NCBI GenBank assembly: GCA_010093605.1
Contig: MU004182.1
Coordinates: 1,211,032-1,275,031, forward strand
Origin: Lophium mytilinum
Taxonomy: Eukaryota
Direction of reading: 5' to 3'
Length of the DNA stretch: 64,000 bases
Part shown: piece by piece, positions 43,201 to 64,000 of the stretch
Position numbering within the stretch: position 1 is the stretch's first letter
How the letters are laid out: every line of letters begins with the position of its first letter
Made by a program: the position numbers and the translations under genes
The notes under the pieces: generated by a model
Databases searched by the model: none
What the model was told of the DNA's origin: nothing
Seen by the model: only the letters and a program-made list of their open reading frames with translations

Positions 43201-44066
43201 CCTACCTTTATCAATCGCAACCCGAACGTGGTAGGGTACGTCGTACTCTCGTATATCAACAATGAAATCACTCGCGTCCTGTATGCCATTAGGTCGTTTC
43301 TCGTAATCTTGGTCGTCATCAAAAATATCAAAGCCAGCATTTGCGCTGTAGTCCGTTAGCAAGCAAAACAATATAGGCTAAGATGTACCTACCTAGCAAC
43401 TTCCGCATATGTATCCATTGCGTTCATCTTCTTCTTGTTCTTCTCCGCCAGGGGTGTAATGACTTTCCGCACCCCTAAAAGATCTCCCACATTCGCAAAT
43501 GAAAGCTTCAAGAATGTTCTCCGGTAGCCCAGAAGATGATTTGGCTGCCTCGTATCAGCATGCTTCTCCTATGGTACCAAATGTCCATATCAGGGACTCA
43601 CCATCTGCAAATCCTCCTTCTCGATCCGCTTCACACCCTTCACTAAGCCCTCAAAAGCTCTCCGACACCACTCTTCCACCTCCGGCTCTTTCCCCCTCTT
43701 GACCGCAATTAGGAAGTACGGATCATATTCCACCGTCGCCTTAAAAGTGCCTCCATCCTCCTCGATGAAGAAGAAGTCCACGCCGGCGCGCCCTCCAGGT
43801 ACATTCTCGTCCTCCACATTTGTAGAGTGCATGTTGCACAGCCACCCGACCTTCTTACGTCCGGCATCGTAACGCGCAAAGCCCATAGACTCATCGATAG
43901 TGTTCGCGAGCCGCGTCGACTCGAGCTTCTCGGCCAGCGAGCTGGCTTCCGTGTTGCGGAGAGTGGAGGCGTCGATGGTCTTCGGTTTGCGGGAGGAAGA
44001 GGAGTAGGAGGATTGGCCTTGCTTGCCTACGCGCCGGAAGGGCTGTCCGCCTCGGCGTGGTGCCAT
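37210..44066 (-). CDS. POL2: DNA polymerase epsilon catalytic subunit
   Basis: Exo I FDIEC, polymerase motifs HLDVASMYPN and ELDTDGIW, and C-terminal CysA/CysB. Introns 43601-43545, 43392-43346 and 43205-43161. Confidence 0.98.
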
Positions 44067-44276
44067 GGTATGAGAGGTGAGGGGGGAGGTTGCGCGTTGG
44101 AGTTGCGGGAGTGTATGAGATTTCGGGTACAGAGGTTAGGGGAGTTTTTGGGGTATCATTTGTGTTTGGTGTCGTGATTAGGGCTGTAAAAGTGCTAAAA
44201 GAGAGAATCTGAAGGGTGGGTATAGTGAATTGGGGAAGTGTTGAAGCAGTGTGGATTTAGTGGAGGAGTGGGCGGT

Positions 44277-44295
44277 GTCGCGTCAAAGTCGCGTC
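44277..44295 (-). promoter_or_regulatory. Twin GACGCGAC (MCB-like) elements in the POL2 promoter
   Basis: GTCGCGTC-AAA-GTCGCGTC about 210 bp upstream of the POL2 ATG. ACGCG cores are typical MBF sites of fungal S-phase genes. Confidence 0.5.
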
Positions 44296-45176
44296 GGCCA
44301 ATAAAGTGCAAAAGTGCCAGGGCTGTCACGGGCGTCCAGCTCTCAAATCGTGAATGCATGTACCGTATACTTTCGCAAAAGAGAGACGCCAGGCTTGGCA
44401 GCGCTAGTAGGGGGCTCTAATTTTAATTCCTTATCCGCCGCACCCGCTTAGTGCCTTAGTACATCAATCCTCTATATAAATGTACTTAAATCTATATATC
44501 TTTCTATTTAATAATGGCCTATACAACCGTAAATAAAGCCTTAATTACCTTAGGGGAATTTAAGGTAGTTTATACGTGTTTTTTCCACTTTTCTTATATA
44601 TTACTTTACTAATTCTTATCTTATAGACGCTACACATAACTATATTAATTCTCTACGCTTTAAAATAGATAAGAAGTATATCCTTATCTATTATTAGCCT
44701 ATAGATTAGATATATAATGCATCTAGAGGTTCTAGGATCTCTCTCTAAGATGCTAAGGGACAACACTAAGGTTGGGTAAAGGAAGAGAATCGCGTGCCTA
44801 TTAATATACGCCTGCAAGCTGGCAGGCGTGTTGTTGGACGTGTAACACGCCTAGGCCGAGGCTATAAGCGTCTAGATAGCCGCCTTAGTATTAAGTAGAA
44901 GATAAAGTTTAGTATAATAGTAGTACATATTTTGCTAAGTTTCTAAGTATAGATTTCTACCTCTATAATAGTTGTATAGAGTTCTACTTTAAGTAGTAAA
45001 TAGATTAGATAAACGCAATTAATTTAGTCCTAATTTAAATAAAATTAATGGAAATTTAAATAAGTTATAATTTTTTTTATAATAGACTGCATAAAACGGG
45101 AAGTCTATAGAAGGGCTGCGCAGCCTTACTATAAATCTGCTTAAGAGCAATAACTCGGTTAATTATTATAGAATAG

Positions 45177-45778
45177 TTACGCGCTTTTAACAGGTTAACG
45201 GCGTATATACGGGCTAACAGCGCGCTTAATTATAGCTAGATTGCCTTAGTAGATTTAAGAGATTCACGGTTTAAATAAGGTGTATAGGCCTGGAGCATAA
45301 AAACGGTCCGCGCCTCCAGCTATTATACTTTCTTTAGTACGCGAATCTCTTAAATCTACTAATACAATCTAGCTATAATTAAGCGCGCTGTTAGCCCGCA
45401 TGCACGCCGTTAACCTGTTAAAAGCGCGTAAGGATTAATAAATATTTAAGTAAAAAGAAAGCGGTCTAGCTAGGAATTAAACTGCAAAAAGAGTGCTACT
45501 AACCCCCTACTCCCTGTGCTTCTGCAGTTTAAATTTCCGTAATAAAAGCTCCTTAAGCTTATTGCATTAAGAATTTAAACTATAGAAGCACTATACTAAC
45601 TACTAAGCTATACTAGAACTAGATGAATTTGCTTATAAAATATTCTATATATATATACCTTTAAACTGCAAATCTCTTAAATCTACTAATATAATCTAGC
45701 TATAATTAAGCGCGCTATTTGCCTATGTATATGCTGTTAACCTATAAAAAGCACGTAAGGATTAATAAATATTTAATT
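45177..45778. repeat. 92-bp inverted repeat (45177-45268 / 45340-45431) plus a third, more mutated direct copy (45671-45778)
   Basis: TTACGCGCTTTTAACAGGTTAACGGCG... and its reverse complement are both directly readable. Confidence 0.88.
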
Positions 45779-46399
45779 AAGTTGTTGCTCTCAAGTAGAT
45801 TTATAGCAAGGCTGCGCGGCCCTTCCGCATACTTCCTATTTCCTTACAATACACTCTCGGCAGCTACCGCCGGAGGACGTGGAACAGCTAATATTAGACG
45901 GATTAGAACGCGCTTTTAGATAGAATAAGGTAGAATATATTATAATTAATTAGCTGTAACTCTAGGTAGGAAATATATAGTATATAAATTAAAATTAGTG
46001 TTCGCGATAAAAAGAATAAAAAATTAGCCCCCCTCCCTCTTATAACTCTAGCCCCTCTCGGGCGCCCTCTATTTACTCCGCGCATTTACCCTGTAATCCT
46101 AAACTGCTATAACTCCTCTAAAAAGCGTTGTATCTAGATTCTAAGACAACAGAGTTATTGCTCGAGCTGCCAGCTATAATACTAGAAGTTCTTAGACTCT
46201 TATTCTTTATTTTTGTAAGATTAATGGGGTTATCGGGAGTATTTAAATGGCCCTTAAGAATTAAGCCGCGGCGCTCTAGATTATACGCCATTAGCCTCTC
46301 TATAAGCTACTGCTTTCTAAGCCTAGAGTACTTCTTTATCTGCCGCCTCTTATATAATATTCTAAGCTACTTTACTATTCTATCCTTATACTTATAGCT

Positions 46400-47971
46400 A
46401 TTAATATCCTTATCTTAGTTAATAAACTTAAGCCTATTATTATTAAAGTTTACCTTCTACTTAATATATATTAGGATTTTAGGTGCATTAGCCTATATAG
46501 AGAGGTCCTATTTCTTAGGCCTATAGCCCTTAATATAGAGCTTACTATCCTTACTTCTATCGGCTGCTAGCGAGATTTCTATGTCTTGGAATGCTTTAAT
46601 AACGAGCTTCGGCCGTAAATTAAGTATCTTTTAAGCCGTTAAGACTACCTAAGTGGTAAGAATTCTCTTGTTAATAGGCTTATCTTTCTTAGGATTCTTA
46701 CTAGCCGCATACTGAGCCTTAATTCTCTTTTCTACGTCCTCCGTAATCCACTCCTTATACGGCTTATTAATAGCTGTATTAAGAGGCTATAGATAGCTAG
46801 TACAACCTCTAGAAATTATAGAAATAAACACCCAATTTAATATTAGGAGGTCCTTAATGGCCTCCGTCTTATAGAACGCCGCAGCGTTAAGTAAAAGGAG
46901 ACTCTCTAGCGGCTTGCCCTTAGCGTCCTTATTAGCTGGAAGGTATACTTCCTCTATCTAGAAATAGAATAGCGTCTTATTATTGTAGGCGTGTTCGTTA
47001 ATGTGCATAATTACGTCCTTAGCGTACCTCTCTTGTTTATTTTTAATAATAGTTCTAGCCTTAGAGGATAATCCTTTAAATATAATAATAGAATTATATC
47101 GCCTAATACTATCTGCGCAGATATAGAGTATTAGAGTAGCCTGGCGCTTATTATAGCTACTCTTAAAGACCTGGGCAGTTACCTTAATAGAGCCCTTAAA
47201 GTTATAGGTATACTAAGTAAGCTACTTAAACGGAATAGGCGTCTTATTAAGGTTAATAATTCGTAAAGGAGGAAATTAGTATTAGAGAGGAAAGGAATTA
47301 AGTAAGCTGCTAAGAGCTATCTTAAAGAAAGCGCCTATAATAACGGGTTGCGTAATCCTCCAGTTATATAGTAGAAACGCTAGTATATACTTATAGAGGA
47401 AAATAGGGGGTTTAGAGGCCTTCTTTATAACTGCCCGGTATAAGATTCTTAATTAGCTAAGGAACCCGTTGAACTACCCTTTTAAAAAGAAGAACTTCTC
47501 TTTCTTATTAGGATAGACCTCTTTAAAGAGCTCTATTAAGCGCCTGCGGAACTAATAAAGGCGAATTTATTAGCGCCTTAATTATATAGTTATAAACTCT
47601 ATATATAACCTTTCTTTAAGTTCTTTCTATTTATAAGAGTAGTCTATATAAGCTAGTTTACAGCTAGAACGGCGGCTTTATATAAGTAAATCCTTCTGCA
47701 ATAACTACCTAGCTATATCTACCCTAGCGATCTTCTAGAAGGCTTCTACCTTATTAAATATTAGTTTCCGTAGGTTACAATTCCGTATATAGAGAAGTGA
47801 ACCCGGAAATATATAGTTTCTCTCGTAAGGTTTAATTTCTATCCGGGTTTAGTGCCACTAGGTAAGAACCTAGAGCTTCTTAGTGATAGAATACGACGTA
47901 AGCTTTTATTTAATAGGCGTAGATCTCTTAGCGAGTTTCCTGGCGTCTAATTCTATCTTTTTTCGTCCCAT
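46400..47971 (-). pseudogene. Decayed DDE_1 (pogo-like) transposase
   Basis: Starts MGRKKIEL at 47971. Remnant motifs INLNKTPIPF (ancestral NLDETP), LLNAAAFYKT (D...FH) and GCTSYL*PLNTAINKPYK (LQPLD..NKPFK), with many TAA/TAG stops. 3' end approximate. Confidence 0.85.
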
Positions 47972-48731
47972 TCATTAAGTAATTGATTTCTCCGGTCGCT
48001 TTAGAGATCGGCCGGAAATAATATTTAGATCTAGTTCTTAGAGAGGCATTGTATTACAGAATAAAAGGGCTTAGTATAGTAATAAGTATTAAGGAAGTTA
48101 TAGTAAAGTAATGGAGGTAAGTTAAAAAAAGGGGGTTTATTATTGTTTATAATTATTAGCTACCCGCACGTTCCCCCCAGGGAGATTACACCGAAAATTA
48201 TCTACGTCTTAATTTTAACCCGATTTTTGTAATTCTAAGCGCAATTAATAGGAAATCGCGAGCTCTACAACTCTTATTATATATATATAATTAAAAAGCG
48301 ACATTTTAGTAGTAAGGTTGTGGGCGTGGAAACGGGTAATGAGGGGACTCGCGAAAATCTAATATAATTTTCTTATCTGTTATCTATACACTAAACTACA
48401 CTACGTTACCTGCCGATTACCCCCCTTGAAGCGTGCTAAGAGTGGCGTCTCTCTTTTGCCAGAGTATACGGTATACAGCACTTTGACAAATAGCATGATT
48501 TTGTTTAGCGAAAGACTGCAAAGCAGTCTATACTCAGAAAATAAAGTCGGCACCTATTTATCCTTCATTTCATCGAGAAGCTCATCAGAGAATAAATCTA
48601 CCCCATCTAGCTAGCCTCTCCGCAATATACTCGGTGGGTCCAAATTCTTCCAGAACAGCCCAGACGACATCACCACTCCCGAAGCACCACCAAACACACC
48701 CTCCGCCATTGCCTTCATCACAACACCCGCA

Positions 48732-53909: not shown

Positions 53910-55492
53910 TATCGGGAGACGACTTTCCGCCAATCAAACTACCCGATAGGTTTGCGGTATAACTACCACGGCTTCTACTTGACTTGGATAGTGTGCTTCG
54001 ACGGCTCACAGTGCTTGCAGATCGACCACATCAAGCACCGAGTATGAAGGTGCAACGGTATCAATATTGAGGGAATGTGGGCTATATAGATGCTGACCTC
54101 AGCACATAGCCGACACGGCTGGGATTCTGTTACTCAAAACAATACTACTTCGCGATATCAAGCACTCTTCCTTTACTCGATTTATTCATCCACAAACCCG
54201 CTTTGTCGAAGCCACATTTAGGCTCAAACGCTATAATTACAAGCTCTCATCTCACGCCGATCGTTGCTTATCGCTCGCGACTGACAGGCCAAAAAACCAA
54301 CACAAGCTATTTGTGTTGTCAGCTCGGGATTGCCTACAGGCATCAGACGCCTGCTTGATTCGACGCGATGAGCAAGGATACACAAAAGACAAATCCATCC
54401 CTGCCGAATACGCAGTACGCCGATACAAAGGTACGCAGTAGGCACGACTGTCCTACCTAGGGGTTCACCAAAGCTATTATGCAGGCGAACTCTTCTACCG
54501 CATTATCACTATAATTCCACATGTAGCCCTCCGATATGGAGCAAGATCCTTCCAATCCAAGGGTTGGTGGTATGCAGCTCGTCAGACTTCGGAACTCAAC
54601 ACAGCTGAGGCATAATCAAATTAGCATTGCCTTATGATTTTCCAAGCCTGGCATCTCAGTAGCACCAGGACCGCTTACTCGCCTAGAAAGGCCCCCCCAT
54701 CAGTTTCGTATAATAATCCAGAACCGCGCCACACTGTTGGGCTGTGTATCTTCCTCGAACAGCCGGCGGAGTCTGAAATAAGATGCCGAGCTAGCCCGAG
54801 CGCATCTTAACCTATTTCAAGGACGACACCCCGTTTGAGACTACTGACCGAGGCATCGATCCAATTGACCGCCGGACAGTTAGTGCTTGCAGCTAGCACC
54901 ATGGATTCACACGATCGACGCTATTATCCTGGCACTGCACCGTGTAGGGATTCGCGGCTGGTGTCAGCCTCGACTGCTTGAGGACTGGACTGCGAAGCCA
55001 ACCCCGACTGCTTGATGATTCGACTGCATTGTCATCGCTTTGGCCACAGCTTTTTCCAGTTCCGCTAGTGGTAAGACGTGATACCCGGCGCTTTCTAACC
55101 CCCGACGCGCTTTTTACAGCCTCTGGCCGCATTTCGTGATTGGCGTGCAGGTGGCTGCGAGGGTAAGTTACGGTACTGGAAGCTGATGAGAGATATTCTA
55201 CTGGCCGGGGTAGCTTTTGCAGGGTTAAAGAGACTTCTATTACACGGCATCTGCGAGATACGCTAGCCACGACATGCGGCCATGCACTGTACCCCATATG
55301 AGGGGGGTCGAAAGCGCCTGGTATGTGGGCCTGCTATTTTAGTACCTAGACTTTGTCCGCCTCTATAAAGGGTGGAGGGAAGGGACGTTGAGGGCCTTTA
55401 ACTTGTAATCTAACTGCACCCCACCACTTCAACTACCTAGGAATTGCGACCACGTCTCTTGGCCCTTGATACTTTGTTCTATTGCCGTGGAA

Positions 55493-56899
55493 ATGTATAG
55501 TCTCACTGAGAATTTCACAGAGCTGGCGGCTCAAATTGCTTCAAACACCGCTATCATAACCGAGTATCTCAAGAAAAACGGTCTTCCCGAGCCTGATTTC
55601 ACGGTCGATGCTGCAGGGGAACTACCTCAGGTACCAGAAGTACAAGAAGCGCGCCTGAACTTGATCGATGCTACCTCCAAACTCCGCCATCTCGCTACCG
55701 GCGCGGATGAGTACCTTCGGACAGAATCCTTCATTGTAAGACAGCGAGTTCAGAAGCTGGGTCAATAAACTGACTTAAACATTAGATGCACCACGACGAA
55801 GCAGTCTTAAACGTTTTTACGCAATTCAATGTCTGGTCTGCGGTCCCACAGCATGGCAGTGCACCAGTCGCTTCCATCGCATCGACCACGGGGTTACCCG
55901 AGGAAAAGCTCCGCCGCCTACTAAAGCACGCATTCACGATGGGACTCTTTGCTGAGACCTCACCGGGATCATGGGAGATCGTGCATACAGGAAGCTCGGC
56001 GTACACGTATAGAAACCCTTTGATTAAAGCCTGGGTTGGCCATAACCTCGAGGAATGCCTGCCAGCGTCCATCCGCCTACCAGACGCACTCCGCAAGTAT
56101 ACTGACAGCCAAGAGCCGGCGCACTGTGGCGTTGCTGTCAATTTCTACCCCGACGCTCCGTCAGATACGACGCTCTTCAACTGGTTTGAAGCCGCTCGTG
56201 AGGGAGAAGAGACCGGCTGGCGGGCTCGACGCTTCGGGGAAGCTATGGCGAGCTTTTCTGAAACAGGCAGTGCGGACATCGCACACGTTAACGCTGGATT
56301 CGACTGGGACAGTCTCGGCGAGGCAACCGTTGTTGATGTACGTCTCCTCACCCCCGAATGCGCTCACATTCATACTAAAACACTCTCAGATCGGCGGCTC
56401 TATCGGCCATGCTTCCATCGAGCTGGCTTCCAAACACCCGAAGCTCAAGTGCATTATTCAAGATTTCCCAGAGCTCGAATCGCGAGCCGACGCTCTCGTC
56501 CCCGCCGCACTCAAATCGCGCGTCACGTTCCAGGCCCATAACTTCTTTGAGCCGCAACCCGTCGTTGCGGAAGTGTATTTCTTGAAGCACGTTCTCCACG
56601 ACTGGTCTGACAAGTATGCTATCAAAGTCCTGAGGCAGCTCGTCCCGGTCTTGAAGGCGGGCTCGCGCGTCATCCTTATGGAGTGTATTGTGCCACCGCG
56701 TGGTGCAGTGCCGGATTCGATTGGGCGAAATATATCCGGGCTGGATCTGCAGATGATGGTGATGGCTAATTCCAAGGAGAGGAACCCGGAGGAGTGGACT
56801 AAGGTAGTCAAGGAAGCGGATGAGAGGTTCGACGTAAAGGCGTTCGTGCAGCCACCTGGGAGCGCGGCGGGAGTGATCGAGATTGTTTGGAAGGGCTAG
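55493..56899 (+). CDS. SAM-dependent O-methyltransferase (family 2, secondary-metabolism type)
   Basis: Motifs VVD|IGGSIGH, IIQDFP, AHNFFEPQP, YFLKHVLHDWSD and KER. Introns 55736-55785 and 56338-56389; TATAAA at ~55364. Confidence 0.9.
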
Positions 56900-58037
56900 G
56901 AAGCTCAGTTGTGGTTGTCTGCTGATGGGGGGCATACATACGAGAGCGAATGATTGCCAGGAATCTCTGGCAATCATGTTTTTTGCGAATCTTTAGAAGC
57001 CAAATCTATGAGCTCAGGATCATGGCTCGTCTTTAAGAAGGGAATTGATCATACAATGAGATTACTGGTTCTCTGACTGAGGTCTCAACGATCGGCAAAC
57101 TGGTAGAGACCTTCGAGTTGACGAACAATGGCGCGGTGCCTGATCGGTTGCTGCAAGCCTTGCCTTCTTCAAATGAGCTGGATTCCGGGCTCAGCAATGG
57201 CTTTGTTTCCAACCGTTTCAGCTCTTTGTATTTGCTACTTCTGTATGGGTATCCAGCGTTGGCTCTCCTTTATTGAACCTAGCAACGTGATCATTGCGAG
57301 AAACATCACCGAACATTTCTGAAGGCCGAGCATATGTCATTGGTAGTATAGAAGGTGTGCTTCTTCTGGGATCTAGATGAAAACAGTCGTGGTTTGCTTC
57401 GCGGTGATTGTGACAAGCTCCTCTAGTAGTATACCAGCCCGAGCCCTGTAGTCCCTTCCCGCGCATGTGTACCCTTCCTCGTCATTATATAGCATCGTCC
57501 CCATCAATTAAACAGCAGAGACGAGTAAGCTAGGTCCAGACGCGCCCAGGTACTATCAATCGGGTCCAGGGGTGTTGGTTCCGGCATGGGAGCTGTATTG
57601 CGAGACCGTTCAGCTTCGTTACCAAAAAAAGGTCTTCGCAGTCATTCCATGGCGGAGTGTAGTCTTTGGTGATCCTTTATTATCCACGGAGCGGAGGCAT
57701 CGTGGAGACGTAGGAGGCGCTGAGACGCAAGTTGAGGTAGGCTACTAAAATCGTCGAGTCTCCCTAAGACACCGTCAGTGAACTGTTTTCTGCGCCTTCG
57801 AAGACAGACGCCAATTTCGCGTATTGCAACTTCAATCTCCTGGGCGAAAGATGTTCCTGTTGAAAGAGAGAGCCGTTGGGGGTGAAAGTGGTTGTGTTCT
57901 GAGCTTTGATGTTCGTCCCCCACACACGTCCCTGCCGCTAACACTCAAATTGGAGCCTGGCCCCATTCTTTCGCCTGTCCATTTTTACAAAGCTTATATA
58001 CTGATATTTTTTGGCCACAATCAAAATCACCCAGTAA

Positions 58038-58180
58038 GGTCTGTTGGTCTAGTGGTATGATTCTCGCTTAGGGTTCACCTTAAGTCGTTTGCGAGAGGTA
58101 AGCATCATCATCAAATCACTATTCAGCATTCCATAACTAACAACCTCATCAGGCCCCGCGTTCGAGTCGCGGACAGACCC
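58038..58180 (+). tRNA. tRNA-Pro(AGG) with canonical intron 58074-58089 and a second, spliceosomal-type intron 58098-58152
   Basis: The spliced product GGTCTGT TG GTCTAGTGGTATGAT T CTCGC TTAGGGT GCGAG AGGCC CCGCG TTCGAGT CGCGG ACAGACC C is a fully paired 72-nt cloverleaf. T-run terminator from ~58193. Confidence 0.9.
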
Positions 58181-58891
58181 ACAATCTGATTATTTTTTGC
58201 TTTTTTTTGGTGCTCTATATCATATATAGATATTAAGCAGTGTGTGTGTGTGAGAGCGGCATGTCTTTTTAGAGGTTAGATGGGATAGAAGAACAACCAG
58301 GGAATTCATTTTGTGGAAGTGTTACGGAGGTTCGCGTTTCGTGGTAATCTTTTGTAAGATGGGGTGCACTTTACGTAGACAGAGGAGTTGTGTCGCCCTG
58401 GAAAACGTAGCACAAGCCTTAGCAGCTTCTTGAGAGGCGTCTTTATATTTTCTCGAGGGGTGAGTCTAAACCTGTGCTGTATGTAACTCTAAGGCGAAAG
58501 CATTTCTTCGAGTTATCTAGCTTCGGACTTAATCTATAACCCTTAATTAAAAACGATATCTAGTTCAGCGGTAATGGCTATATCACAATGAAAGTGCATG
58601 TGGATCAAGTAGAGGATGCCCCGGCGTGGCATTACTCTTAAAGTCACTAATCGAGTCATAGATCTGTCAAGCACATATGGAGTTTGTTCACGACGCAGAA
58701 GTAAAGTGATGAAAGGTATGAACAAGAATTCGAGTACTCTATATATACCTTGATTGTTACAATACACTATGCCCGTCTTGGTCTAAAAATCCCAGGAAAG
58801 GTGGTATTTTGGGAGTTCGAATTAACTACCCTTAGTGTCTACCTTCTTAATCATGCGATATGGTTTCACGCACAAAAGAAGGCTGGCGGCC

Positions 58892-60140
58892 TTACTCTGC
58901 ATCCGTCGGCGCTACTGGAGGCGTGTCATTGACTTGAATACCGCCCCTCTTCTTTTCCTGGCTATCATGGAATGGTAGCTTCCATCCGCCCTCTGCCTCT
59001 GGCGTGCTCAACCATAGCCGCATCAAGTGACGGCGCGGAGCTGGGGGCGGGTAGTCCTTGTATGCAGTCCTAGCGTGTAGAACATGCTCGTTGGAGAGGA
59101 ATTGAATGTCGCCGATATCTAGAATCATATGCAAGCTGAGACGCACACAGGTGTCCTCAAGAATTTGGGCAGCACGTAGCTGAGCAGGCGAGAGTGGAGG
59201 AATGCGGCCGGCATCAGAGAAGCGGGTAAGAGATTTGACGTAGTAGGGATCCCATCTATGAGGTGAATTAGCTTTTGCGTGTGGTACAGCTTGGGCTTTC
59301 ATACTTGGAGTACACCCTCGGGTTCTCCCCTTTCTCCAAATAGAAGACCGACGTCTTTATCCACTCCTCCTCTCCCTTGCTGGTCTCCCCTTTGCGATCG
59401 AAATACCATTGCGGCTTCACTAGCTCCTCCGCAACATCCGGATGCTCCTGCTGCAGCACATTCCACACATGATGCGAACTCACCAGATCGCTTTCTCCGC
59501 CCTCGAGTGCTTTTGCTACGCAGAGAAGTCCTACGAGGTCACTGTCGTCGGCATGGAAGAATTGGCGCGCATTTGTGCGGTAGATCCGCACTTTATCGAT
59601 CTGGCTGCTGTCTTCTCCGAGATCCTTGACATGACCTAGGACGTGTCCGCGGCCGTTTTGAGATACGAAGTAGCCCAGATAAGTTCCTAGACCCATGTAT
59701 GCGACCGCGGATTTGCGAAGACCCCATTCGTCCACCGGAAAGCCTTTGAAGAGGAGGAATCCTTTGCCGTTGAGCAATTCGTGCCTCAAACTTTTAAGAA
59801 ATGTGCTGAACTCTGGGAGTGTGAAGTTCGACTGCGAAATCCCGGTCAACGGGGTTCCGGAGGCAATGAAGGCATCGGCGGCAGCGCTGATTTCAGCAAT
59901 CTCGGAGGCAGAAAAGGGGTGAGTCCAGCGTTCGGGGTTGCTGGCATAGTCTGCGGCGTCCCAGACTGTGGGGCCGGTGATGGTCTTGGGGAAGGCGGAG
60001 TAGGGTTGGAGAAGGTCGTAGAGGGGAGGGTGCTGGCCCGAAGTCTTGATGCCGTCTGGGAAGATGGATTTGGGGGCGGTAGACGGAGAGGAGAGAGTGT
60101 GAGGGGGTGCAGGTGCGGAAGCTGTAAGTGCTGGTGCCAT
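58892..60140 (-). CDS. TauD/TfdA (clavaminate synthase-like) 2-oxoglutarate/Fe(II) dioxygenase
   Basis: FHADD (HxD), GGES, GDIQFLSNEHVLHARTAY and RHLMRLWL. Intron 59304-59256. Confidence 0.9.
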
Positions 60141-60849
60141 TATGGGGTTTGGCTGTGGAGAGTTGACGTTTGTAACTGAATTAGATGAGTGACAGCAACA
60201 ACCAGTGATATCGAAGGTTGTACGAGTTTTACTTGTATTCAAGATGCAATTGAGAGTAAAGAGAACACAAGGGTTTTATATATCGGAGTACGGAAATGAC
60301 GCGACTCTTGCACATCCAACAAAGGGCGTCATAAGGCTTTTATGGAAAAAAGCATCTTACCCCTCCATCCACCCTTGGTACTACCGATGGCGAAATCTCC
60401 GAAGCACGAGCGAAGCACGAGCGAAGCACGATAACGGCAGATTTGTCCATGTAACTGCGTAGGTGGGATTGCGTGATTGAGACCTTGTCAGCACGAGATG
60501 GACCACTACTGGCGTAGTGGAGAAAGGGCGCGATGAAGTCAACCAAGGGTCCAAACCATGCCCCGCACCGAGCCGGACTATTCTGTGTGCCAAGAGGGGT
60601 GCCCTTGCCGGACTGCTTTGGAGGGGGGCGGGGAATGCTGGTACTCGTTAAAGTCTCGCGTCGTGACACAGTCCACCGCGCCACCATCACTTCGCAATTA
60701 TGAGTCAACGCCATATTCGTCTCCGTCCGCGCTTTGCAAAGAGATTTCAGCGGACTCAAAACCTTCTGAAGTGATGCAGCTTTCGGCTACCTCGAGTTCT
60801 AACTGTATAATGATTAGATAATTTTGACCAACTTCAAAAACATCAGTTC

Positions 60850-60991
60850 GGCCCAATGGTCTAGTGGTATGATTCCTGCTTTGGGTAGCACACGCTCATG
60901 ATTGCAGGAGGCCCGTGAGTACACACCACACCATCATGCTCCGGACTCATTGCTAACCATAACACAGCGCGTTCGAATCGCGGTTGGGCCC
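60850..60991 (+). tRNA. tRNA-Pro(TGG) with canonical intron 60886-60902 and a second, spliceosomal-type intron 60915-60967
   Basis: The spliced product GGCCCAA TG GTCTAGTGGTATGAT T CCTGC TTTGGGT GCAGG AGGCC CCGCG TTCGAAT CGCGG TTGGGCC C is a fully paired cloverleaf. T-runs follow from ~61001. Confidence 0.9.
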
Positions 60992-61258
60992 CGAAAATGA
61001 TTTCTTTTTGCATTTTTTTAGACCTTTATGCTTCTCCATCGTGAGCGGACAAGATGCGCATTGAAACTGGGGCTGCATTTTTTATGGGCCATGCCAAGAG
61101 GACTAGCTTAACTGATAGTTCTATGAAAACAAACCTATGCACCAAGCTTTCCCACATTCTTCATATATCCGCTACACCCAAATCGCCCCCGTTTTTACAT
61201 CCGAGATGCTCAATAGCAGTCTAAATATGGGCTGTAACTTCATCGGGCAAAAGAGAAC

Positions 61259-61282
61259 GGACCCAACCGCGATTCTAACGCG
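61259..61282 (-). other. Inverted copy of the 3' exon of tRNA-Pro(TGG)
   Basis: Minus strand reads TAG|CGCGTTAGAATCGCGGTTGGGTCC versus CAG|CGCGTTCGAATCGCGGTTGGGCCC at 60965-60991 (22/24 identical in the exon). Confidence 0.7.
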
Positions 61283-61947
61283 CTAGTATGTTTCAATTTC
61301 AATCAGACATTACAGACCACCTCCGACAATACTATGTGACTGGCAAAGCAATAAATACTCACCTTACTCAGGGTTTTCCAACCCCCCTGCTACGCAGAGG
61401 GGTTTCAAGACCAACGGCTTATAACAACCGTTCTCGACTTTTTTAGACACTTGAAAGACGCCAGACAGTGTTGAAAAGACGGCAAGGAGTACGAAAACAC
61501 ATGTCAAATTCAAGAGCCGAGCAGAACCTGTCGCGACGGGTGGTTGAACTCTGCCCCTTTCAATTCACTCCCTCAAACTCTTTACGTCGTGCTCGAATCG
61601 TGCATAATGTCCCAGGACACCTCAAACGCCGCTTTTACACAGATATTTCACTAAAGATACCTCTCAGATTCCAGAGTAGCGCAATACCATCCCTGAAATA
61701 CGCTCCAATCAGACCCCTTCTAATTCATGAACTACAATTCTTTACGTCCCATTTATCTCCCCTTCAACTCCACGAAGCCACTCGAACGCCGCTCTCAAGC
61801 ACGCAAGTCTCTTAAGAAAACGTCTCGAATTCAACCGCAGAGAATTCGTTTCTTAGACAGGAGCTCAATCTCGCAGCTGGGCACACACCGTTTGGCACTC
61901 GTTTAGCACTGCTTGGGGTACTTCTACCGGCTCTTAGAAAAGCCCCA

Positions 61948-62700
61948 TGATGTAAAGATTTACAGCTTGAAAATTGAGCTGTCTATTGACTGCCTAGCTA
62001 CTTCGTAACTGGGCTGCTCCCTGCAGTGGTATCAAGCGAGTAAGAGAGGAGCTTTTGTAGAGAGATTTTCAATGTGCTGGAAGTTATGGCGAGAAATATG
62101 ATGTAAGTTCGGCGCAGTGGATATTAGACTGCCTCTTGACTAGCCGGCGACACACTAGCTGAGCTACTCCTTACAGGGGTGAGGAGCGAACAAGAGTGGC
62201 GCGTTTGTAGAGAGATTTCAATGTGCTGGAAGTTATAGCATGTTCGTGTAATGTAATTTTGAGGCAGTGGAAATCGAACTACCTCTTAGCTTGCCAGCGA
62301 CACACTAGCTGGGCTACTCCTTACAGTGGTGTCAAGCGAGCGATAGGGAAGCTTTTATAGAGGTATATCTAAGGCGCTGAAATTCATGGCATATTCATGT
62401 GATGTAAAATTTGAAGCTGTGGAAATCAGACTACCTTTTGGCCGACCGGCTATACTCTAGCTGGGCTGCTTCTTACAGTAGCGAGGGGCGAGCAAGAGTG
62501 AAGGTTGAGTAGGGCAATATGCAATGTGCTAGAACTCATAGAATGTTTATATGATGTAAATTTAATGCAGTGGAAATCTGATTACCTCTTGACTGGCCGG
62601 GTAACCGCTCGCTGGAACACTCCTCACATTGGTAAGAAGTGAGCAAGAGTAGAGCTCGAGCAGTGGCATACCCGTGTACACTGACTTATGACATATGATG
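61948..62700. repeat. Degenerate tandem array, ~151-bp unit, about 5 copies
   Basis: T(G/A)ATGTAA recurs at 61948, 62099, 62248, 62400 and 62552, with shared GCAGTGGAAAT, CTAGCTGGGCTACTCCTTACAG and CAATGTGCTGGAAG blocks. Confidence 0.85.
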
Positions 62701-63090
62701 CTATATCAAAATCTGCGTACACTTTGTGGCGGTTGCGTGGGGAGATCTTATGCACTCAGGGATGCGAAGAAATAATGCTTCTACTTTTTTTTGAATATTC
62801 ATAGATGACACCGTCTGAGGTGGCCTGGCAGAGTCTTAGGATGCTCCAAACGATTCACTTACGCCTACTTCAGTTTTTTCGAAAATGCATCAGGGGACCT
62901 CAGACCGTGGCACCCAGGTGTACGCAGAACTGTTGCAGATGGAATTTATCGTTTTTGGTATTATTCCCGAGCCTCTTTGATAATTCGAGGGTCTCGTTAG
63001 CTAACGCCGTGTGTCTTTATAACAGACACCATGTGAATTAACTCTCCGCAGTGTGAGCCATTTCAGAAACCATTCCCAGAAGCCATCTCC

Positions 63091-63757
63091 TCAGAAGCCA
63101 CGTCCTCCACCGCGTCCACGCCCCCGGCCACCTCCGCCACCGCGACCACCACCCCGTCCTCCCCTGGGACCACCACGGCCGCCTCGTCCTCCCCTGTCAG
63201 CTGCCTCCTTCCGCGCCTTGTTCTTCGGTTTCGGCTGATCGTCCACGAGCAGCGTGTCTAGTGGGAGACTGTCGGGTAGGATGAAGTATCGGATGGTTGA
63301 GCCGCGTAGATTAATGGAATCGAGGGCGACTGGCTCACGGCCTTTCTGCGTCATTTTGACGGTTCGGAGGGCGGTGTTCATCTGAGGCGTAACAGAAGCG
63401 ATAGTGCCGTGGATGACAGTTCCTATAAACGCGGTTAGTCGCGCCGACACATCCAAAAGCCTTTACCTGAACAGGATTCGCTAGATTATATTAGTTGCCC
63501 ATGCGCTAGGCCTCGAGGTTGCGACCAAGGGCAGAACTGAAAGGTCCGGGAAACAAGTGGGCAGAAGACATGATAGAGCAGTATTACCATTCTTCAGTTC
63601 AATCGTGACTGTTTCGTTCGCGCACTTCATCAGGAATCTGAACACCAGAGTCGTCAGTCACAATTCGCATGTCGGCGGGGGAAGCCTGGGGTAGAAAGCT
63701 CAGCTTGGGCGCCGCCTATGGAACAGCAGAGTGGGTAACTTGCCGTACGAGCTTCAT
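63091..63757 (-). CDS. SMD1: Small nuclear ribonucleoprotein Sm D1
   Basis: [27 protein letters not shown]...[20 protein letters not shown] with an RG-rich tail. Intron 63743-63638 is GC-AG; intron 63587-63423 is GT-AG. Confidence 0.95.
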
Positions 63758-64000
63758 GGTGACCTCTACTTCTCTTCGAAGCTCTTCTCGTCCTCGCGGA
63801 GTGGTGTTTTGGTTGTGTGATGGAGGTGAGGGCGGTGTGGTGAGGTGGAGGGGAGCTTGCGCGAGAGTCGCGGTGATTTTGATGTTGGCGGGTCGGGTGG
63901 TATTTTATCCGGTTATAGATTAGCGTGGTGAGTCACTAGTATATTACAGTCTTCACCACGCTCCGCGATATTCAATGCAACAACATTTAGGTTGGTAGGG

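Follow-up and report, generated by a model that had tools for sequence, protein, structure and literature searches.

The window analysed here is a stretch of 64,000 nt from Lophium mytilinum (contig MU004182.1 of assembly GCA_010093605.1, positions 1,211,032 to 1,275,031 of the forward strand), and all coordinates given below count from its first nucleotide. At 60850-60991 on the + strand lies a tRNA-Pro(UGG) gene in three exons that are separated by two interruptions, one of 17 nt between tRNA positions 37 and 38 and one of 53 nt between positions 49 and 50. The shorter interruption is of the type that the tRNA splicing endonuclease (TSEN) cuts, and the longer one has the make-up of a spliceosomal intron. 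The parts of the gene and its flanks, which include sequences resembling terminators of RNA polymerase III (Pol III), are as follows:

60806..60811, +: TATA-like hexamer TATAAT, 39-44 nt 5' of tRNA position 1; putative, from the sequence only
60850..60885, +: exon 1, positions 1-37, with the 5' strand of the acceptor stem, the D arm with box A, the 5' strand of the anticodon stem and the anticodon TGG
60886..60902, +: 17-nt intron at the canonical 37/38 site, TSEN-cut type; reported by ARAGORN as an intron of 17 nt at 37
60903..60914, +: exon 2, positions 38-49, with the 3' strand of the anticodon stem, the variable loop and the first base of the T stem
60915..60967, +: 53-nt insert of spliceosomal type, with GTGAGT at 60915-60920, GCTAAC at 60952-60957 and CAG at 60965-60967
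60968..60991, +: exon 3, positions 50-73, with the remainder of the T stem, the T loop with box B, the 3' strand of the acceptor stem and the discriminator C
61005-61009 and 61013-61019, +: T5 and T7 runs, Pol III terminator-like, 14 and 22 nt after the gene

Scripted removal of both interruptions leaves a 72-nt RNA, which ARAGORN identifies as tRNA-Pro(tgg) and in which no stem pair is missing, those of the T stem CCGCG/CGCGG included. The initial annotation of this DNA had placed the insert at 60915-60967 between positions 49 and 50, with GTGAGT, GCTAAC (60952-60957) and CAG, and had stated that its exact removal restores that T stem and that a 17-nt canonical intron is also present. Each of these coordinates matches the sequence, the canonical intron lies at 60886-60902 in the 37/38 position, and the restored stem is part of the cloverleaf that ARAGORN calls.

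The insert is flanked by C49 (60914) and C50 (60968), its branch A is 60956, 11 nt from the 3' end, and its longest run of T is 2. A parser that ignores boundary letters, described below, gives a single zero-mismatch solution for this gene, which is the GT..AG placement, and no shifted placement is equivalent to it. The 17-nt intron stands at the canonical 37/38 position of TSEN-type introns, whereas the 53-nt insert stands outside it and has instead the features of a U2-type GT-AG intron, namely an extended 5' splice site, the spacing of a CTRAY branch motif, a YAG end and a length within the host range. Read against the general consensus sequences of the two boxes, neither the region of box A (60857-60869) nor that of box B (60969-60980) is divided between exons.

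Neighbouring tRNA gene and host introns

A tRNA-Pro(AGG) gene of the same build lies 2.7 kb upstream of the tRNA-Pro(UGG) gene, with these parts:

58038..58180, +: tRNA-Pro(AGG) gene
58074-58089, +: canonical intron, 16 nt
58098-58152, +: 55-nt insert in the variable loop, at 45/46, with GTAAGC, ACTAAC (58136-58141) and CAG
58193-58198, +: T6 run after the gene

Branch A of the 55-nt insert lies 12 nt from its 3' end, and the best parser solution for this gene can be placed in four equivalent ways, GT..AG being one. The initial annotation had described the UGG gene as a second tRNA-Pro(TGG) gene with an insert at a site other than its neighbour's, and the two sites are indeed 49/50 and 45/46. 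These are the two tRNA genes found in the window, and both bear inserts. When 46,021 GT..AG deletions (35-130 nt, both strands) were made throughout the 64 kb, a tRNA was formed across the junction in 4 cases, all within 58038-58180 or 60850-60991. No second copy of either insert occurs within the window. The D arm of both tRNA-Pro genes contains the hexamer GTATGA (60867-60872 and 58055-58060), which is also the 5' hexamer of a verified host intron (59304-59299, -); the shared hexamer could be chance, or it may be a reason for pre-tRNA-Pro to meet the U1 small nuclear ribonucleoprotein.

Host introns for comparison were taken from a public run (X1, classed as RNA by guesswork), whose contigs over positions 55000-64000 join across four introns:

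55736-55785, +: 50 nt, start GTAAGA
56338-56389, +: 52 nt, start GTACGT
59256-59304, -: 49 nt, start GTATGA
61286-61371, +: 86 nt, start GTATGT

The four introns end in TAG or CAG, have T runs of 2-3 and show, when the printed sequences are inspected by eye, a branch-like motif roughly 10-12 nt before the 3' end. Both tRNA inserts of the window (53 and 55 nt) are indistinguishable from host introns in size and signals. Neither tRNA gene is covered by the X1 contigs of this region, which speaks neither for nor against expression. The nearest downstream contigs start at 58201 and 61013, within T runs and 21-22 nt past the 3' end of each tRNA; such starts might stem from co-transcription, from a promoter region in common or from an assembly that broke off at the T run. 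The contig that starts at 61013 is part of a + strand gene, which has the GT..AG intron at 61286-61371 and an ATG that opens a reading frame at 61054.

Elsewhere in the window lie genes for DNA polymerase epsilon and a HET-domain protein. HET domains are a mark of filamentous ascomycetes, and with the short GT-AG introns they place the host among the fungi, probably as such an ascomycete; the protein atlas gave only M20 peptidase clusters, in which bacteria predominate. Its GC content is 0.37 at 44001-48000 and about 0.50 in the remainder.

Recurrence of inserts in tRNA-Pro genes of metagenome contigs

Metagenome contigs were scanned with a pattern in which tRNA-Pro positions 8-27 were fixed and followed by a spacer of 75-105 nt and a T-loop motif, and 112 loci were returned. 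Together with the two window genes they make 114 genes for the parser, which tries every deletion of 25-124 nt at every position, ignoring the boundary letters, in combination with an intron of 0-44 nt at 37/38, and keeps 72-nt tRNA-Pro solutions with at most 1 mismatch in 17 stem pairs. The outcome was:

No second deletion, intronless (pattern match extended into the following tRNA): 37
No second deletion, canonical intron only (21-78 nt): 40
Second deletion required: 32
Unparsed: 5

The best placement of the second deletion is bounded by GT..AG in 26 of the 32 genes (24 metagenome loci and the two window genes). The others are five marine loci without GT..AG and one spurious locus (L081). 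The marine loci (L004, L020, L060, L083 and L098) are tRNA-Pro(CGG) genes with a 26-nt T-loop insert, which may be a non-canonical algal intron of endonuclease type; since these inserts lack GT..AG ends, the parser does not force such ends. Two loci (L029 and L044) are tRNA-Pro(UGG) genes with an unusually long canonical intron of 72-73 nt and no other interruption.

The 26 GT..AG genes represent 15 distinct mature tRNAs, treated here as families, and 21 different insert sequences, and their inserts occupy nine sites (27/28, 28/29, 30/31, 32/33, 33/34, 45/46, 49/50, 52/53 and 53/54). By chance about 0.11 GT..AG families are expected, because 28 equivalent placements are summed over the 15 families, and GT..AG is observed in 15/15; given the 24 further metagenome genes, chance is a very unlikely explanation. 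The inserts are 48-78 nt long and begin with GTAAGT, GTGAGT, GTACGT, GTATGT, GTAAGC, GTAAGA or GTAAAT, a GTRNGY-like set in which GTAAAT belongs to one family. All 26 end in CAG or TAG (YAG). A motif scan places the A of a CTRAY branch motif 9-13 nt from the 3' end in 25/26; in the remaining locus (L047) the scan took a later CTGAC at 6 nt, and the TCTAAC shared by its family is present at 11 nt.

Every one of the 26 genes has a T5+ run that starts 2-26 nt past the discriminator, and no insert contains one. Avoidance of T runs within the inserts was considered as a Pol III signature and dropped, since a T5+ run occurs in 1/25 of the intron-like regular-expression matches of the window. Box A is unbroken in all 26 genes, but this was demanded by the search pattern. 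Box B is interrupted in the 53/54 families alone, with the terminal G of the insert standing in for G53. In these loci (L008, L010, L047, L066, L070, L103-L105, L012, L058, L089, L022 and L101) the insert splits box B, but because it ends in AG, a G directly precedes TTCGA or TTCAA and a GTTCRA resembling the box B consensus is contiguous in the DNA.

Eight of the 53/54 loci (L008, L010, L047, L066, L070, L103, L104 and L105) have shared flanks and are therefore copies of one locus in related genomes. Identities over their 28 pairs are:

72 exon positions: 2016/2016 identical (100%)
Canonical intron: 91.4%
GT-AG insert: 84.0%
33 nt upstream: 87.3%
40 nt downstream: 82.2%

Three elements of this family's insert are invariant: GTAAAT, the CT and the A in the branch motif (CTAAC, CTAAT or CTGAT), and TTTAG. 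By this comparison of sequences, the exons are under purifying selection across the insert, as parts of a tRNA that exists only after the insert has been removed. Among the 15 mature sequences 253/255 stem cells are paired, a figure that is partly circular because the parser allowed at most 1 mismatch, and 12/17 stem pairs are changed on both sides.

Some loci show more elaborate arrangements. In L013, L112, L045 and L049 the inserts at 33/34 and the introns at 37/38 are separated by only four bases (anticodon AGG and G37), which leaves a 4-nt piece of tRNA between introns of the two types. Another locus (L109, - strand of the locus), read by eye because two extra deletions are beyond the parser, is a tRNA-Pro(UGG) gene that has a T5 run downstream and three interruptions: a 54-nt GC..AG insert (GCGAGT..CCTAAT..TAG) at 30/31 in the anticodon stem, a 10-nt canonical intron, and a 56-nt insert (GTAAGT..ACTAAC..AAG) at 69/70 in the 3' strand of the acceptor stem.

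A search with blastn-short among the 21 distinct inserts found no similarity between inserts of different families, matches being confined to members of the same family in two families. In 8/15 families the placement is unique and no border base is duplicated, which argues against cut-and-paste insertion with target duplication and fits reverse splicing or another exact route. On these grounds, and because the window's two inserts have no other copy in the 64 kb, the inserts are not taken for copies of one mobile element such as a transposon. An introner-like element was likewise rejected as an identity for the 53-nt insert, given its unique placement, the lack of similarity across families and the lack of a near-identical copy in the 64-kb window.

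Proposed processing and alternative explanations

The explanation considered probable is that 60850-60991 is a working nuclear tRNA-Pro(UGG) gene of Pol III type, whose 53-nt U2-type GT-AG intron is removed by the spliceosome and whose 17-nt intron is removed by TSEN. Pol III would read the gene from its internal A and B boxes to the downstream T runs. The spliceosome would then remove the 53-nt insert in the nucleus by means of GTGAGT, the GCTAAC branch site and CAG, and the tRNA splicing endonuclease and a ligase would remove the 17-nt intron at 37/38, probably afterwards. The insert itself may have originated from a free intron that was reverse-spliced into a nuclear pre-tRNA and then copied back into DNA, as proposed for U6. 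The transcript is read as a spliceosome substrate because the spliceosome is, to our knowledge, the only machine that uses GT, a CTRAY branch at a fixed distance from the end and YAG, and because Pol III transcripts can be its substrates.

Several points weigh against this explanation. Pol III transcripts were reportedly poor splicing substrates in early work on animal cells, and for the gene at 60850-60991 the excision, the exon junction and the order of steps are all deduced from the DNA. The 49/50 insert has no counterpart among the loci found, so that its support comes from the 14 other families and not from its own conservation, and the closest relatives of the gene (L029 and L044, with the same acceptor stem and T arm) have no GT-AG insert. 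In seven families (L013/L112, L045, L049, L072, L108, L024 and the window gene at 58038) an equal score is reached after a shift of 1-3 nt, which alters the anticodon or variable loop, and the placement that preserves the loop consensus was chosen. Two relatives of L072 (L011 and L097) lack bases of the anticodon stem or variable loop and, from their sequences, seem to be decaying copies that bear inserts. The absence of T5+ runs from the inserts does not discriminate, because intron-like matches of the window and host introns hold such runs only rarely. The scan covered tRNA-Pro with 53-83 extra nt between positions 27 and 53, and is silent on frequency, on other tRNAs and on other sites.

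The insert could also be a spliceosomal intron in a different kind of transcript, with the tRNA cut from an RNA polymerase II (Pol II) transcript, the leader of the downstream protein gene, after co-transcriptional splicing and released by RNase P and RNase Z. Splicing is, as a matter of general knowledge, normally coupled to Pol II, and the contig starts at 58201 and 61013, together with the intron and open reading frame of the + strand gene that follows the tRNA-Pro(UGG) gene, speak for this route. A start near 61013 needs no co-transcription, however, because tRNA genes often adjoin Pol II promoters (general knowledge). The T5+ run close downstream in 26/26 genes is a Pol III trait for which a Pol II leader has no need, and the intact box A, although required by the pattern, and box B outside the 53/54 families point the same way. 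This explanation is regarded as unlikely. A dead gene, in which a tRNA-Pro copy was inactivated by a stray intron-like insertion and has not yet decayed, would account for a 49/50 insert that was seen only once and would resemble the two decaying loci just described. It would leave unexplained the zero stem mismatches and the intact canonical intron and terminator, the presence of such inserts in both tRNA genes of 64 kb, the perfect or near-perfect cloverleaf across the insert in 15 families, and the family whose exons are 100% identical while insert and flanks have diverged by 13-18%; moreover, GT..AG together with a branch motif at the right distance would be expected in well below 1% of random insertions. 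An inactivated copy is therefore judged quite unlikely.

Removal of the insert by a protein endonuclease and ligase, like the bulge-helix-bulge tRNA introns of archaea, red algae and nucleomorphs, is held to be very improbable. Such a route is known for non-canonical introns in nuclear tRNA genes of Cyanidioschyzon merolae (PMC3728597), and the five marine loci with a 26-nt T-loop insert lacking GT..AG came from the same scan. At the window inserts, however, a strict bulge-helix-bulge reaches at best 4/7 pairs, in a weak test in which the canonical introns score 5/7 (UGG gene) and 4/7 (AGG gene). For this route GT, YAG and a CTRAY motif 9-13 nt from the end would be needless, but they are present in 15/15 families, and eukaryotic TSEN measures from the mature body of the tRNA to the anticodon-intron helix (PMC10539383).

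The initial annotation had also held that the T arm cannot form before the insert is removed, which overstated the case. The 3' exon holds positions 50-53, the T loop and positions 61-65, and with them 4/5 pairs of the T stem; what the insert interrupts is pair 49-65 and the connection to the variable loop, nothing more. In the 142-nt precursor, the minimum-energy fold retains a 4-bp T hairpin and the acceptor stem. In fungi, the substrates of tRNA splicing and export are folded tRNA bodies. An order of spliceosome first and TSEN second in the tRNA-Pro(UGG) gene is reasonable and plausible by analogy, because human TSEN contacts the D arm, the anticodon stem, the acceptor stem and the elbow (PMC10539383); the order is not forced at 49/50, because most of the tRNA body can still fold. 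For inserts in the anticodon stem or loop (L001, L007, L099, L013, L045, L049, L072 and L108) a spliceosome-first order would be close to compulsory.

A wider proposal is that, in a lineage of filamentous fungi, maturation of tRNA-Pro routinely needs both the spliceosome and TSEN, and it is favoured by a narrow balance of judgement. Pol III pre-tRNAs would then be regular spliceosome substrates, spliceosomal introns would have entered tRNA-Pro genes repeatedly, at no fewer than ten sites, by reverse splicing into nuclear pre-tRNA that still contains an intron, a layer of tRNA genes would be hidden from current annotation tools or mistyped by them, and the supply of tRNA would be tied to the spliceosome.

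Detection, significance and relation to known splicing systems

Genes of this build escape the usual tools. ARAGORN with default settings finds 0 tRNA genes in the whole window, and Rfam gives 0 tRNA matches in it, both at the gathering score and at E<=5. The intron option of ARAGORN does not recover the tRNA-Pro(UGG) gene and turns the neighbour at 58038-58180 into a tRNA-Gly. Applied with the same option to 27 loci (the 24 GT-AG metagenome loci and L109, L011 and L097), it reports nothing in 15, assigns unusual introns to 11 and mistypes these as Leu, Lys, Thr, Tyr, His or Cys, and calls one (L097) as Pro with a misplaced intron. A search of about 300 nt of flank around the 27 loci for further split tRNAs beside them brought up nothing but other misreadings of the gene itself. 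In tRNAscan-SE 2.0, non-canonical introns are sought only in the archaeal mode (PMC8450103). Genome annotations may hold mis-calls of such tRNA genes.

If the inserts are spliced as proposed, one 72-nt RNA goes through both splicing systems, Pol III transcripts besides U6 are natural substrates of the spliceosome, and the sets of fungal tRNA genes have been under-counted or mistyped. Some tRNAs may then depend on the mRNA splicing machinery for their maturation. The tRNA genes would also offer a clean site for the study of intron gain, since every exon base is constrained and the insertion point is exact. Reviews keep the two kinds of intron apart: a 2025 paper, in which the intron types are 'completely unrelated', assigns the spliceosomal ones to transcripts of Pol II (PMC12530127), and a review from 2023 places eukaryotic tRNA introns, cut by TSEN, between N37 and N38 (PMC10275265). 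A literature search outside most subscription journals and supplements found no paper that describes spliceosomal introns in tRNA genes.

Set against the canonical tRNA intron of the 2023 review (PMC10275265), the 17-nt intron fits fully and the 53-nt insert at 49/50 does not. The bulge-helix-bulge introns of Cyanidioschyzon merolae, nucleomorphs and archaea (PMC3728597, PMC4090602 and PMC3978253) are similar to the insert in that they interrupt tRNA genes outside 37/38, are sometimes multiple and are missed by ordinary finders. They differ in that they are defined by an RNA fold at their borders and cut by the tRNA endonuclease, whereas the window inserts have GT, a branch motif and AG without such a fold, within the limits of the weak test given above. 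Introner-like elements of fungi and introners of algae are a source of recent gain of short spliceosomal introns and form families of near-identical copies. The tRNA inserts, by contrast, have no sequence shared between families or with the rest of the window.

The closest parallel is the intron of U6 small nuclear RNA. The single U6 gene of Schizosaccharomyces pombe contains an intron that the spliceosome removes (PMC5855946), U6 is a Pol III transcript (10.1101/2023.01.27.525755), and similar mRNA-type introns interrupt the U6, U2, U1 and U5 genes of Rhodotorula hasegawae (PMC5855946). Like the S. pombe intron, the 53-nt insert is of GT-AG type and lies in a small, structured, non-coding gene, probably one of Pol III, and its removal would be spliceosomal. 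The origin proposed for the U6 intron, reverse splicing followed by reverse transcription, would also explain insertions into tRNA genes without target duplication. Membership in the U6 group was rejected because the host gene is a tRNA, the likeness being one of mechanism, and the argument from the catalytic centre, which is made for U6, does not explain a tRNA as target. Unlike U6, the tRNA-Pro(UGG) gene also holds a TSEN-type intron, so that two splicing systems would act on one 72-nt RNA, and at least nine insertion sites occur within one type of tRNA. A spliceosomal intron in a Pol III gene is thus known from U6, and what is new here is a candidate for such an intron in a tRNA, beside a TSEN intron.

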